From: Eledone cirrhosa
Taxonomy: Eukaryota
Assembly: GCA_964016885.1 (NCBI GenBank)
Contig: OZ024742.1
Coordinates: 136,152,001-136,216,000, forward strand
Reading direction: 5' to 3'
Length of the DNA stretch: 64,000 nucleotides
A program made the position numbers and the translations under genes. How positions within the stretch are numbered: the stretch's first letter is position 1; each line of letters opens with the position of its first letter. Shown here piece after piece: positions 18,398 to 42,290 of this stretch. The notes under the pieces are model-generated. The model did not search any database. It saw only the letters and a list, made by a program, of their open reading frames with translations, and was not told where the DNA came from.

Positions 18398-18573
18398 AGA
18401 AATTCTGGATTCTGAACAGCTCGGAGAGATCCGGAGAGTTCGGATCTAGCTGTTGAGACGACCGGAGCTCAGCTGTCGGGGTCCCGAATTTTTCATATTA
18501 AGCACACTACTACTACAAGTATCGAGTACTCTGGTGAGTAATGATCTAACTGTTTTTTACCACTTCCATTCTG
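18398..18573 (+). mobile_element. Hammerhead-related element family B, diverged copy
   Basis: cggagctcagctgtcggggtcc and agtatcgagtactctggtg match 37477-37672. Confidence 0.55.
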
Positions 18574-18574
18574 A

Positions 18575-19790
18575 TATATATATATATATGTATATATATA
18601 TGTATATATATATATATGTATAATTATATATATACATGTATATATATAAATAATTACATATTTATATATATGTAATTATTTATACATACATACATATATA
18701 TATATATGTAATTATTTATACATACATATATATATATATATATATATATACATATATATATACATATATATATATACACACATATATATACATATATATA
18801 TACACACATATATATACATACATATATATATACACACATATACATATATATATGTAATTATTTATACATACATATATATATACATACACATATATATACA
18901 TATATATGTATATATATACATATATATATATGTATATATATATACATATATATATGTATATATATATATGTATATACACATATATATATATGTATATATA
19001 TATATACATATATATATATATGTGTATATATATATACATATATATATATGTATATATATATATATACATATATATATATGTATATATATATATATATATA
19101 CATATGTATATATATATATATATACATATATATATATGTATATATATATATATATACATATATATATATGTATATATATATATATATACATATATATATA
19201 TGTATATATATATATATATACATATATATATATGTATGTATATATACATATATATATATTTATGTATATATATATATGTATATATAATATCTATATTTAT
19301 GTATATATATGTATTTATATGCATGTATAAATATATATGTGTGTGCGTGTGTGTATGTATATGTGTGTGTATATATATATATATATATGTCTATGTATGT
19401 ATATATATATGTCTGTGTTTGAGTATGTGTGTGTTTGTGTATACATATATATATGTATGTCTATGTATATATGTGTGTGTGTGTGTCTGTATATATATAT
19501 ATATATATCATCATCATAATCATCGTTTAACGTCCATCTTCCACGCTAGCATATATGTGCATATATGTATTTGTATATATATATATATTTGTATATATAC
19601 ATTTGTCTATGTATATATATATATATATATATACATTTGTATATGTGTATATATATATATATATGTGTGTGAATATATGCGTATATATATATATGTGTAT
19701 ATATGTGTATATATATATATATGTGTATATATGTGTGTATATATATATATATATGTGTGTGTATATATATATATATGTGTGTGTGTGTGT
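18575..19790. repeat. Long compound (AT)/(ATGT)/(GT) microsatellite array
   Basis: Direct inspection; interrupted by a short RTE-like tail at about 19510-19548. Confidence 0.95.
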
Positions 19791-19792
19791 GA

Positions 19793-20134
19793 AGGCGCAT
19801 GGCTTAGTGTTTAGAGCAGTAGTCTTGCAATCGAAAGGTTATGTGTTCAATTCTCGGACCGGCTGATGTGTTGTTTCCTTGAGCAAGACACTTTATTTCA
19901 CGTTGTTCCAATTTACTCAGCTGAAAAGGAGTACCAGCAATAGCTGGAGGTTTAACCCTTCGATGGACAGGTGTCGGGATAAGCACCGGCCAAATGAGCC
20001 TTCTGCCTTAAGGCAGACTTTAGACTTACGGCCTGCCCGCCCAGCCAGTGGGATGGCGTCATCGTATGGCTAAAACAGCACATGCTGTGACCAGCGGCGC
20101 CGTATGGCGCCCGACTGATTGGTCAGTCAAGGTG
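19793..20134 (+). mobile_element. SINE family 2 (CORE-like) with a distinct 3' tail
   Basis: ggcgcatggcttagtg head, gttcaattc B-box, tccttgagcaagacactttatttcac. Confidence 0.8.
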
Positions 20135-20202
20135 ATATATATATGTGTGTATGTATATATGTAAGTGTGTGTATATATATGTATACTCTTTTTTGGTTCC
20201 AG

Positions 20203-20636
20203 CCACCCGGCTGCTACGTCCACATCATGCATATCTCTGATATCCCTCGGCAACTCGTTGAAGAGATGAAGGCCAAAGAACCCCAGGCTATGGTAATATA
20301 TTCTAGATGTGGAAGACGGGATCTTTGGCACCACACAGTGACGTCCTGTTCGACAGTTGGTCTCCCAATGCCAAAGTTTGGTACTAGTTCCCCCAGGATT
20401 ATCCACATGTCGATCACTGCGTATCTCTCTCGTCTTCGTTCCAAGGAGTAGAGGTTCAGTTCTTTTAGCCTCTCCCAGTAGCTTATCTCCTTCATCGTCA
20501 CAATCCTCTGAATTACCTCAAGCTCCGTGGTTAGTTTGTCACTATGTGGTGCCCACAACTGGGAGCAATAGTCCAGGCGGCTTAGGACAAATGTCCTCCA
20601 TAGTGTCAAGATGGTGTCTCGGTCTTTTGTCCAGAA
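20203..20636 (-). mobile_element. CR1/L2-group LINE ORF2 fragment, frameshifted
   Basis: LWRTFVLSRLDYCSQLWAP...ISYWERLKELNLYSLERRRERY; 20203-20345 is homologous to about 18185-18330. Confidence 0.9.
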
Positions 20637-20766
20637 AGTATGTGTGTGTGTATATATATATATATAAATTTATATATATATATATATATATATATATATA
20701 TATATAAATTTATATATGTACATATATATATATATATATATATATATATATATATATATATATATA

Positions 20767-39449: not shown

Positions 39450-39505
39450 TTATCTGATGAAAGCACACCATAATTTAACTTGGCGTCCTTGAAATATGTA
39501 TAATG
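39450..39505 (+). ncRNA. Degenerate hammerhead-like motif
   Basis: CTGATGA-aagcacacca-taatttaact-tggcgtcctt-GAAA-tatg-TA; stem II pairs at 8 of 10 positions; stem I poor. Confidence 0.5.
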
Positions 39506-40740
39506 AAATAAATATGGTTTTATAAATATAGTTTCCATTTGTTAATATCGTATTTTTACTCCAAATATTTGTTGAGTGCTTTATATCAGTTATAAAAAAT
39601 ATTTGCCTGTTGTATCCCAACAATTTAAATAGAACTTTTACATATATATATATATATACGTATCACCCACCACTTTTGTAAGTGTGTGTGTGTGCGTGCG
39701 TGTGTGTGTGTGTGTGTGTGTGTGTGTGTGTGTGTGTGTGTGTGTGTGTGTGTGTGTGTGTGTGTGTGTGTGTGTGTGTGTGTGTGTGTGTGTGTGTGTG
39801 TGTGTATCAGTGGACAGGGGAAGCTTCGTGTCTCCTAATACTACGAATATTTCTATTTCAATGCGCAGTATATTAGGGAAAATTTTTGCAGAAGTTCACC
39901 AGGGTACAATTGCATAGAACCCCCTCCCCCCCACACACATTTCTCCATTACACAAATGTAAAGAAAGGGTCGATATACCTTAGCGTTGGTGATGTCAATG
40001 ACAAACCTAGAATATAAGGGCCGAAAAAGGCTCGTGCTCATAATGATTCAATCAATTCAAACCTGGACAGGTCGTTGATTTATTGAACCCTGAGTGGGGA
40101 AATTGTCGCCGGAACAAGTTGAAATCAGTAATCAGATCACCTGTGTACATGCGCGCGACAAGTACATGTACACATAAATATATGCCATATATTTACGTGT
40201 ATTGCACTCACACACACACTCTTATACATAAGGCACGGCTTTATCTACGGTATATATGAGTGTGTATGTACATAGAGCATATAGACATATTTTATATAGT
40301 TACACAATAGGCATGAAAATAATTGGGCAGTGACTGGTTATAGTACTTAAGAATTAAATGGTCATTGTCTAATGTCAATAATAAATTACAATAAATTTGA
40401 ATTTTGAATTTTTCCTGTTTCCAGTTAATGTAACGAATCCTAACGTTCGAATAGGCCAGTATAATTCCTACGCGTATATTATATATATATGTTTATATAT
40501 ATATATATATATACATATATATATATATATATATATATATATATATATATATATATATAGCGCGATGAATTAGTTTTGCGAGGTTTTTTATATGAAATAT
40601 AATATGATATATATATATAAAAGACAGCTAGAAGCGAAAACCAACCAAACAGTGAGTGTGTTCTGTTATTAATTCTGGCAATATTACGCAAATATGACCC
40701 TCCCCAAATATAACTATATATATATATATATATATATATA

Positions 40741-40894
40741 AAATAGAATAGCTTTCACCGTATTTTTGACTAAAAGAATTTTAACCTGATAATGGGGTTT
40801 AGAACCCTCAGATAAATGGAAAAAGATGAGTATTGACGTACATTATCAGGCTAAAATTCCTTTAGTCAAATATACGGTGAAAGCTATTCTATTT
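40741..40894. repeat. Inverted repeat, about 54-bp arms
   Basis: aaatagaatagctttcaccgtattt...cctgataatg / cattatcagg...atacggtgaaagctattctattt, adjacent to (AT)n. Confidence 0.85.
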
Positions 40895-41302
40895 TCTAAT
40901 TTCAAACCTGCTCACTGTTTCAAAACACATACTTACTTGATATATATATATATATGTGTGTGTGTATATATATATGTGTGTGTGTTTACATATACGTACA
41001 CATATATACATATGTAAACATGTACGTATATGTAAACACACGTATGTATGTATATTTGTATATATGCATATGTGTTTATATTGTATATATATATATATAT
41101 AGATCGACAGATAGAAGTAGACATGAATGTATGTAGAAAAGAACAGTGATTTCGATGTTCTATATTTGTTGCTTCATCTTGTAACTAGAAGAATTGACGG
41201 GGTTAAAAGATTTGAAGTGAAGACAAATTTTTAAATTAGAAAAGACATTTCAACTTCTAATATCTAGAGCTCATTCACATATATATATATAAATATTTTA
41301 AA

Positions 41303-41490
41303 TAATTGTTTCTACTTTAGACACAAGGGCGGCAATTACCCAGTGCATTACTGGTACTTTATTTTATCGACCCCGTAAGAATGAAAGGCAAAGTCAACCT
41401 CGGCGGGATTTGAACTCAGATCGTAAAGGGACGTAACTATGCTGGAAAACATGGCGTCCGACGCTCCACCGATACTGCCATTCCACCGCC
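41303..41490 (-). mobile_element. SINE family 1, full length
   Basis: Reverse complement matches 20939-21127. Confidence 0.9.
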
Positions 41491-42127
41491 AAATGTTTTA
41501 AATAATACGGCATTTTACAGACGTACTCTTGAACACATATCAACAAACAAACACATATATATGCATCTCTCTCTCTCTCTCTCTCTCTCTCTCTCTCTCT
41601 CTCTCTCTCTCTCTCTCTCTCTATATATATATATATATATATATATATATATATATATATATATATATATATATATATATATATATATATATATCGAGCA
41701 AACAAACAAACAAGAGGGTGCAATAACATAATGTATTAGTTTCACGCTTAAAATTCAACGCATCGGGTATTGGGCCTTCATCGGGAAAAGCGGAAAGAAA
41801 TAATAAAAAATGTATTAAAATAAAATTAGAAAGAAAATAGAAAGAAGTGGGGAAGAAACGGGAGCAGTAATGTGTGGGGGAGTGATTTGGCCTGCAGGAG
41901 AGGTGGTAGTGGTTAGGGATACAGTCGTGTAGGTGGGGTGTATATTATGAGTGTGGGTGTTAAAATGTGTTGTTGTTGGAAGTATGTGCACGCAGATGCA
42001 TGAGTATGCACACAAAAACACATGTGCACACACACACATACACACACACACACATATACATATATATATATATATATATATATAAATGCACAGACACACA
42101 TACACACAAACTCATATATATATATAA

Positions 42128-42290
42128 AACAAAGGAAATGTGGTAAGGAACCAGATGGGCCATAACACACCAGAGTACTCAATACTTAGGGTAGTAGAGT
42201 GGGAAATAGGAAAAAGTATGACCCCAACGGCAGAGCTCAAGCCGTTTCGACGGCTATTTCTGGAAACCGTCGGGGTCATACTTTTTCCTA
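42128..42290 (-). mobile_element. Family B element with short inverted arm
   Basis: Minus strand gacccc-gacggtttccagaaatagccgtc-GAAA-cggc-ttgagctct-gccg-TT-ggggtc plus tail nearly identical to 30985-31120. Confidence 0.8.

Follow-up and report, generated by a model that had tools for sequence, protein, structure and literature searches.

Foldback elements of Eledone cirrhosa as truncated head-to-head insertions of a Hydra-clade Penelope-like element, with a shared stop at a probable RNA 5' end

What kind of element repeatedly leaves copies that are folded back on themselves and broken at a hammerhead ribozyme, and how does the break arise? A 64,000-nt stretch of Eledone cirrhosa DNA (GCA_964016885.1, contig OZ024742.1, positions 136,152,001-136,216,000, forward strand; the assembly measures 3.0 Gb), hereafter the window, raises this question six times, with homologous copies at 18398, 20767, 30039, 30985, 37477, and 42128 (BLAST between copies, E 1e-10 to 1e-55). 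A sequence-only reading of the window had described these copies as sharing a related tail and a hammerhead 3' half, and this stands. Each has a ~79-nt tail and part or all of that half (GAAA-CGGC-GAGCUC loop-GCCG-UC/GGGGUC, the slash marking the predicted cut), copy 20767 beginning only inside stem III, without GAAA. As that reading also stated, all six lie in or against (TA)n and none retains CUGANGA; CTGANGA occurs in none of them, and the nearest matches in the window (37958 and 43434) belong to another family. There are at least three subfamilies among the six. Judged from sequence, each is a 5'-truncated, head-to-head insertion in (TA)n that derives from a Hydra-clade Penelope-like element (PLE). 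Coordinates within the element are given relative to the predicted hammerhead cut, GUC/GGGG, with +1 being the first G after GUC.

The family is large, with 27,920 exact matches genome-wide to a tail 30-mer and 7,815 to a 34-mer from the ribozyme half (reversed controls, 0 in both cases). The outer ends of copies are at +20 or +99, where they abut (TA)n, the target preferred by the Hydra clade, and 193 of 202 tail ends at the fetched loci run into TA, compared with 22.5% of window bases that lie in or within 5 nt of (TA)4+. All of the 30 best matches to copy 30985 have fixed outer ends (+20 and +99) around a variable centre, with a size of ~190-210 bp. Longer copies lead into a 3' untranslated region and then an open reading frame (ORF) with reverse transcriptase (RT) and GIY-YIG motifs. 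The full-length unit, ~3.13 kb, consists of a pseudo-long terminal repeat (pLTR) with the hammerhead, the tail (+21 to +99), a putative intron end, and the ORF; in this order the tail is therefore the start of the body. Open frames in the master copies reach 670 aa and contain YRDD and VIY..YIG, with 1323 homologues that are mostly ~700 aa. A Pfam search of the ORF returned nothing above cut-off (GIY-YIG had E=0.069, below it), and a PDB sequence search returned 0 matches. As expected of PLEs, pLTR sequence past -47 is found upstream in 12 of 29 ORF copies, which are partial tandems, and an inverted arm is adjacent in 65 of 93 tail arms (an automated count that missed several more). Most of 13 full-length copies have, in their sequence, a GT donor in the tail and an AG acceptor 64 nt on, which may bound an intron of the kind that PLEs retain in the 5' untranslated region; because this pair spans the tail end, the template RNA is probably unspliced. 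Four near-identical copies ~44 kb apart (L099-L102, G000:C2:338328704-338461846) form a segmental tandem array.

The Hydra-clade call rests on the ORF motifs HSDKTGN, KRLRWR (R for K), CNCPDRSTC, PCNLC, and ACKH, with no CCHH seen, because these match the definition given in the available part of PMC8557442 (DKT, RWK, a CxCX5C linker, CxxC plus CxH, no CCHH). Our first guess, the Neptune clade, was dropped since the motifs fit that Hydra definition. An inverted form with a tail on one side is described for PLEs in the portions of PMC8557442 and PMC3846280 at hand. Could the foldbacks nevertheless be a miniature inverted-repeat transposable element (MITE), or a SINE-like (short interspersed element-like) foldback amplified as a unit from few masters? 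Their uniform size, the fixed outer ends among the best matches, and the recurrence of a few junctions would suit such an origin. However, the two ends are asymmetric, 65 adjacent pairs contain 59 distinct junctions, and the masters encode RT and GIY-YIG, not a transposase; target-site duplications are unreadable in (TA)n. Amplification as a MITE or unit is refuted for the bulk of the copies and has, as a general explanation, a negligible probability, while a minor lineage of re-copied stubs may exist. The sequence-only reading was thus right both in preferring recurrent, independent junctions and in disfavouring a MITE. Neither are these non-LTR (long terminal repeat) retrozymes, which are head-to-tail tandem monomers with a complete hammerhead in each, as defined in the available text of bioRxiv 10.64898/2026.07.22.740005; the six copies are dispersed, head-to-head, and without the hammerhead 5' half.

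Where the arms stop was mapped on 93 tail matches, from loci covering approximately the first 90 of 100 places listed for the tail 30-mer. Breakpoints were set by a strict joint split of both arms, a procedure that leaves some miscalled rows (e.g., L152, L205, L208, and L241), missed the inverted partners in L158, L162, L174, L197, and L228, and gives lower bounds for arm ends beyond -100. Counts for families B and C in general come from exact-match patterns, were tallied by hand among the first 100 matches listed for each, and concern young copies, mostly on contigs C1-C3. Among tail arms passing -31, 57 of 65 stop within -31 to -47, and one of the other eight ends in -48 to -100. The mode of the stops is -41 (20 of 158 arms), followed by -40 (17 of 158), and junction clustering is far beyond chance genome-wide. 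This edge follows no arm length, since the +20 arm, 79 nt shorter than the tail arm, shares it with longer arms: it is kept by 52 of 52 adjacent partners passing -31 and by four of seven copies with bodies reaching +184 to +786. It is also kept by single arms joined straight to (TA)n and by subfamily C, which has a different loop sequence. Short-read contigs, whose summed depths come from one study (perhaps of the same sample) and are not copy numbers, show a ~8-fold step at the edge, fall off 500-fold beyond the tail, and contain joints between opposite strands at 865-869 of L312; a loose-end row at L312:906 was discarded as evidence, L312 being mutated there. Nor does the edge follow any ribozyme structure, since it falls in the stem II loop in family B and at the 5' edge of stem I (near -43 to -46) in a sister family, A. 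The family A edge was read by eye and is uncounted because few copies turned up in 399 kb of DNA taken without selection, namely 15 arms of family A and 23 of family B/C, the window's own included. The statement that the elements are broken at the ribozyme therefore applies to a minority of arms, which end exactly at the cut, and not to the main stop.

What, then, places the edge at -41? Quite probably, it is the capped 5' end of the element RNA. The base A(-41) lies in TTAGTC, TCAGTC, or TTAGTT, a YYAGTY-like motif resembling an initiator (Inr), which is conserved while the adjacent loop diverges, 80 of 101 long copies reading TTTAGTCC. TATA-like boxes are found above it, with TATTTAT beginning 31 nt upstream in B1 and TATTTAAA 29 nt upstream in B2. 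Three of five long arms of family A have TATAAATA 29-30 nt above their edge (near -45), the remaining two, both from one locus, reading CGTAAATA. The TATA and Inr consensus sequences and their spacing were taken as generally known. Single arms often carry, just before A(-41), an extra G that neither the template nor the flank accounts for; it is seen in 10 of 57 arms of one set and 11 of 46 of another, compared with 1 of 76 at the control A(-30) (Fisher p=0.0009; unique loci counted by hand in the first 100 matches of each listing, with a control diluted by templated extensions). When direct joins only are considered, the figures are 21 of 90 against 1 of 34 (p=0.007). For Penelope and Chlamys-3, transcription is known to begin within the pLTR, according to the published accounts available in part. 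The possibility of a 3' splice site at AG(-41,-40) was rejected, as copies keep the AG. We also observed that a stub starting with A(-41) directly after (TA)n (e.g., G000:C1:9891830) takes over from the target TATATATA at about -30 along with a T at -1; a stub with this target-derived TATATATA might be transcribed and re-copied like a SINE.

How do two arms come to face each other? Of the 65 adjacent pairs, 24 have a tail-less arm that extends 5' beyond the tail arm by 5 nt or more, 12 show the reverse, and in 29 the two ends are within 4 nt of each other. The 24:12 asymmetry is not significant (p=0.065), the point being that both directions occur. Likewise, L305 and L324 have grossly unequal long arms, in opposite directions, and a 3.9-kb head-to-head copy (L121:3818-7760) has a tail arm without 1.1 kb and 34 nt that the other arm holds, with microhomology at both gaps. 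A hairpin that began symmetric might also have become unequal through later deletion. Subfamily letters agree between the arms in 88 of 96 pairs, against 34% by chance, from which it follows that both arms come from one source. PAc, a PLE studied in vitro, cuts both DNA strands and starts reverse transcription at two internal sites, as reported in the available part of PMC11167929.

The sequence-only reading had instead proposed self-priming or template switching at the ribozyme. In the form considered here, cDNA or antisense RNA would prime on itself or switch template at the ribozyme helices, so that one arm copies the other. Such an origin would account for the shared subfamily letters and for the 33 of 65 junctions that are blunt or microhomologous. 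The GGC of stem III is indeed used at the 20767 junction, and the CCGTC microhomology suggested for 42128 is allowed, being possible only. In addition, head-to-head palindromes were read as self-priming on an antisense template by Arkhipova 2013 (PMC3846280, in the part available). However, that either arm may be the longer argues against self-priming, since copying of the tail arm could not give anything longer than that arm, and copying of the tail-less arm could not give a tail. In the 24 pairs above, the tail-less arm includes sequence that the tail arm does not have, as it does on a much larger scale in L121. Furthermore, families A and B have the edge at different parts of the ribozyme, single arms without a partner share it, and long cDNAs cross the main-stop sequence without stopping (0 of 21, discussed below). 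We consequently hold self-priming at the ribozyme to be improbable.

The same edge could in principle be produced after insertion, if long palindromes were later collapsed, by central deletion or by the assembly, to stable arms of ~60 bp. Palindromes are unstable, which counts for this idea, and a long arm often has another long arm as its partner (a hand count gives 14 opposed pairs among the 100 cores listed). Yet single arms and pairs almost without an inverted stem (L166, L182, and L198) have the same stopping point, longer palindromes survive in near-perfect form (L143/L144 and L148/L149), and the short-read contigs contain both the step and the fold-back joints. Since collapse predicts neither the extra G nor the peak at +1 described below, we regard it as very unlikely.

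A second, minor stop coincides with the predicted cut. When 56 single arms starting at +4 to -6 are considered, 27 begin exactly at +1 (11 positions; p=4e-14), or 20 of 56 (p=5e-8) without the T/GGGG cases of possible CpG decay. Starts near +1 are partly favoured by the search pattern, which allows more filler there, yet the counts at +2 (4), +3 (3), and -1 (4) are low. The density of this class is approximately a tenth of that of the -41 class. Stops at +1 are enriched in a subfamily reading TCTTACTGG (17 of 27, by hand), which perhaps has a more active ribozyme. Template jumps are found in 8 of 29 exact tail-to-body copies, five of the eight leaving from -42, -40, +1, or +2 (one by eye), and after jumps to +185 or +370 RT stops again at -35 to -40. 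This pattern of jumps and stops fits RT running off RNA 5' ends that would be made by capping or cleavage. Two further groups of copies deserve mention. In L401-L403, the segment -41 to -1 is repeated in tandem, exactly or nearly, and joined at the cut site, like a 41-nt leader copied in trans. In L373-L399, 4 of 14 short-body copies end at +184 to +186, one abutting (TA)n and two being jump junctions; this is possibly a third priming site, or a favoured landing site just before the ORF start.

Is there a ribozyme capable of making such a cut? The sequence-only reading had looked to full-length masters with a PLE ORF and a gacccc-CTGANGA-gacgg core. The ORF-bearing masters exist, and their core is a different one, ACCCC-UUGANAA-G; stem II here forms a domain of ~57 nt, and stem III has 4-5 bp. 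No CUGANGA lies upstream, and the ribozyme is nevertheless, on our reading of its pattern and predicted folds, a variant and not absent. The missing CUGANGA is explained because the family hammerhead has a U3-A8 core and a long stem II, and this core is a published PLE variant (PMC4209133, in the part available). Genome-wide, 1,925 sites match the pattern for the 5' half exactly. A hand count of the first 100 cores listed gives 75 TTGANAA, 15 starting with CTG (11 of them CTGAGAA), 10 otherwise decayed, and 0 CTGANGA; N7 of the UUGANAA core is free, all four bases occurring. The features of a type I hammerhead (three helices, the 3-8 pair, G10.1-C11.1, GAAA, and NUH) are present in the sequence and predicted folds. 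Minimum-free-energy folds of L179 and L107 contain the three-way junction, those of L312, L169, and L296 folding otherwise. In an alignment of 12 copies, hand-picked from 37 representatives of 113, 86.7% of cells are paired, subfamilies B and C differ by three compensatory stem II pairs, and U3-A8 is found in 7 of 12; the covariation score is above that of 499 of 500 shuffles, in a test that kinship inflates. An Rfam search of the whole window gave no hammerhead among the 150 of 434 matches listed, (TA)n swamping the output. As a candidate master, CTGANGA at 4-30 nt from the 3' half was rejected, its 37 matches having scattered spacings and those at the ~23 of 30 loci inspected being junction filler or foreign sequence. 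A subfamily with a CUGAGAA core (L091-L120 and L329), in which C3 is opposite A8, is predicted to be weak or dead, and comprises many long copies and at least one full-length tandem. The hammerhead of sister family A is canonical (CUGANGA) and short, with a predicted cut at GUA/GAAG. Family A has its own tail and the same head-to-head form, and is found in the window at 37798-38016 (a foldback), 43432-43581, 43562-43660, 22942-23001, and 27296-27334.

These observations can be accommodated in five steps, in which each element would be the product of two cDNAs, primed separately, extended as far as the RNA 5' end, and then joined; taken as a whole, we find this explanation somewhat probable. 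First, an endonuclease would cut both strands of (TA)n, one DNA end priming at +99 and the other at +20, both on unspliced RNA from the same source element. Second, A(-41) would be an RNA polymerase II start inside the pLTR, and RT would reach the cap and stop there, often adding C (an extra G in the sense strand) or an A-run, much like the strong-stop DNA of an LTR element that fails to transfer. Third, the rarer stop at +1 would come from ribozyme-cleaved RNA. Fourth, the cDNA ends would be trimmed and joined via microhomology or filler, single-arm copies joining (TA)n directly. Fifth, and least certain, long and tandem copies would come from another template without an end at -41, a step added because none of 21 long copies stops at the edge on a second round. 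The simplest such template would be ribozyme-cut, unit-length RNA, circular or jumped end to end, which would rebuild the pLTR.

Several observations weigh against this explanation or parts of it. One is that, of full-length copies passing -31 on the second round, 0 of 21 stop at -31 to -47 (p=7e-14 compared with 57 of 65; the 21 combine 12 and 9 from two sets, three copies ending at +30/+31 being left out), even though a capped full-length RNA should give some second-round stops at the edge. This result excludes a sequence pause, and implies that long copies use a template without an end at -41 or are efficient in jumping it. Such behaviour could come from a monomer cut by the ribozyme and either circular or jumped end to end, from a read-through RNA, or from a roadblock acting on the first pass; circular RNA was proposed as the source of tandem copies in the part of PMC4209133 available. 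That cleavage is needed in the fifth step is argued against by the mismatched CUGAGAA cores, 11 of the first 100 listed, which still made long and full-length copies (L329), and by ribozyme-dead PAc, which inserts normally in vitro (PMC11167929, in the part available). Jumps from cap to cut are rare, with three exact cases. As for the edge itself, 37 of the 57 stops fall short of it, at -31 to -40, with about a quarter as many overshooting to -42 to -47, so that trimming and A-tailing have to be assumed. The TATA-like box is found in 0 of 3 long subfamily C copies. Before A(-41), C is also common (6 of 57 and 8 of 46), and the extra G could reflect cap-independent addition of C at any true RT stop. 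The agreement of subfamily letters would also be expected if one arm copied the other. For the ribozyme, the number of covarying pairs is not beyond the shuffle control (393 of 500), and an Rfam search of a full copy gave no hammerhead match. Finally, everything stated here about start site, cap, splicing, and cleavage is deduced from DNA.

A roadblock is an alternative that directly accounts for the 0 of 21 second-pass stops. In it, the element and the two primings would be the same, and -41 would be a protein obstacle in the initiating ribonucleoprotein, resembling the template boundary of telomerase at a fixed RNA coordinate. Runs of A/T of up to 15 nt at the edge (L165 and L210) would then look like stuttering, and the edge is ~60-65 nt from the +20 end in both families. 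However, a roadblock leaves without reason the Inr-like motif and the TATA-like boxes 29-31 nt above the edge in families A and B, as well as the 4-nt difference in the edge between the families, which is in step with these motifs. It also sits badly with the renewed stops after jumps. We therefore deem it unlikely, and retain the two separately primed cDNAs running to a capped end.

A more speculative extension, which we offer tentatively, is an LTR-like cycle without tRNA. Capped RNA would give dead-end, strong-stop stubs, because target-primed reverse transcription would start just downstream of the RNA 5' end, whereas the hammerhead would give a unit-length circular or end-jumped template that would yield full-length, tandem, promoter-regenerating copies. 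The family B promoter would lie inside the ribozyme, with TATA in the 5' strand of stem II and the start site in the loop of that stem. The mRNA would thus begin with only half a hammerhead, to be completed by the half in the 3' pLTR, and this split ribozyme would join the two RNA ends.

The six copies can be described arm by arm in these terms. In copy 1, the tail-bearing arm (18437..18572, plus strand) has A(-41) as its first base, with a G before it and a predicted cut after 18477. Its tail-less inverted partner (18394..18436, minus strand; subfamily C) is decayed, with an internal deletion, and was recognised by eye against 30 relatives, its boundaries being approximate. The foldback form that the sequence-only reading had described is thereby upheld, and the foldbacks number six instead of the five it had counted. 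Copy 2 consists of a tail-less arm (20765..20787, minus strand; +20 to about -6) and a tail-bearing arm (20785..20903, plus strand; about -18 to +99; predicted cut after 20804), GGC being common to both. Copy 3, at 30039, is not one simple foldback. It comprises two outward-facing, tail-bearing copies separated by a TA run, namely 3a (30023..30121, minus strand; +98 to -8) and 3b (30171..30268, plus strand; from -24), the latter with a short tail-less remnant after the TA run (30140..30156, minus strand; about +22 to +4, by eye). In copy 4, the tail-bearing arm (30984..31127, minus strand) runs from +100 to -41/-44, its terminal T-run (sense) exceeding that of the template, and the tail-less arm (31130..31185, plus strand) from -36 to +20. 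Copy 5 has a subfamily C-like tail-less arm (37475..37528, minus strand; +22 to about -32) and a tail-bearing arm (37544..37672, plus strand; about -27 to +100; predicted cut after 37570). In copy 6, the tail-bearing arm (42128..42264, minus strand; +98 to -39) is followed, after a 2-nt filler, by a tail-less arm (42267..42291, plus strand; -5 to +20), and CCGTC is also present at -28 to -24, so helix microhomology was possibly used here. The TA tracts holding copies 1 and 2 interrupt open frames on the minus strand (~17990-18330 and ~20180-20640) that we take to be 3'-end fragments of LINE-like (long interspersed element-like) RTs, presumably CR1/L2-like. Directly after the TA run of copy 2 is a repeat (~20935-21130), presumably SINE-like, similar to sequence beside several fetched loci.

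Two familiar processes resemble the one we propose. In LTR elements, minus-strand strong-stop DNA is primed just downstream of the RNA 5' end and copied to the cap; here, priming would be on nicked chromosomal DNA, not on a tRNA. In L1 twin priming, two target ends each prime on the RNA and the product is a non-duplicated 5' inversion, whereas here it is an inverted duplication with its 3' ends outward. Among PLEs, the closest are those of the Hydra clade, including Hydra-1_Obim (Craig et al. 2021, PMC8557442), a likeness of description and motifs. As described in the available portion of that paper, they share with the present element the C-terminal GIY-YIG, DKT, RW[K/R], CxCX5C, CxxC, CxH, and lack of CCHH, as well as the (TA)n target, a ~3 kb unit, a hammerhead near the 3' end, an inverted 5'-truncated partner, and an optional tail. 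However, the Hydra hammerheads in its file S2 are all CUGANGA with a short stem II, unlike the UUGANAA core with the long stem II domain and short stem III found here, and their tail is 30-40 nt compared with 79 nt. A fixed 5' stop, which is found here in tens of thousands of stubs, is not described for them in that portion. The Cercyon hammerheads of Schistosoma mansoni (PMC4209133, in the part available) share U3-A8 covariation, a palindromic loop III, and the proposal of circular RNA, and their single motifs and opposed pairs 100-700 bp apart were ascribed to truncated PLEs, as here. They differ in having minimal motifs, unmapped breakpoints, and no genomic evidence of cleavage. PAc (Poseidon; Frangieh et al. 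2024, PMC11167929) also cuts both strands of AT-rich DNA, and its two internal RT starts define a tail downstream of the hammerhead. PAc belongs to another clade, its ribozyme is dispensable in vitro, and, in the text at hand, its inverted products are unexplained and no RNA ends were seen at the cut, in contrast to the present family, where 27 of 56 nearby single arms start there. Penelope of Drosophila virilis and the Adineta vaga PLEs (PMC2377424 and PMC3846280, in the parts available) are alike in having a start site inside the pLTR, an intron in the 5' untranslated region, TATA- and Inr-like motifs in the pLTR, and an inverted pLTR shorter than the direct one. They differ in that their head-to-head repeats were ascribed to antisense-RNA self-priming, with pLTR regeneration left without an obvious mechanism.

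Earlier publications thus already describe the class of element, its inverted shape with a tail, its preference for (TA)n, and the U3-A8 core. Mapped stops at a probable start site and at the predicted cut, evidence of priming from both target ends, and a ribozyme straddling its putative promoter were not found in the open-access literature searched, older subscription papers being outside its scope. The tens of thousands of stubs amount to a primer-extension map written in the genome, with two priming sites, a major stop, and a minor stop, and this map predicts RNA ends and a cleavage site at the single-nucleotide level. Such stubs are liable to be mis-annotated as MITEs or hairpin RNA genes. 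Within the open-access literature searched, the +1 peak may be the first hint of a metazoan PLE hammerhead cleaving in vivo, and the two-priming reading provides an alternative to antisense self-priming. Together, these results bear on how the tandem and inverted structures of PLEs form, on how the pLTR is regenerated, and on the role of the hammerhead.

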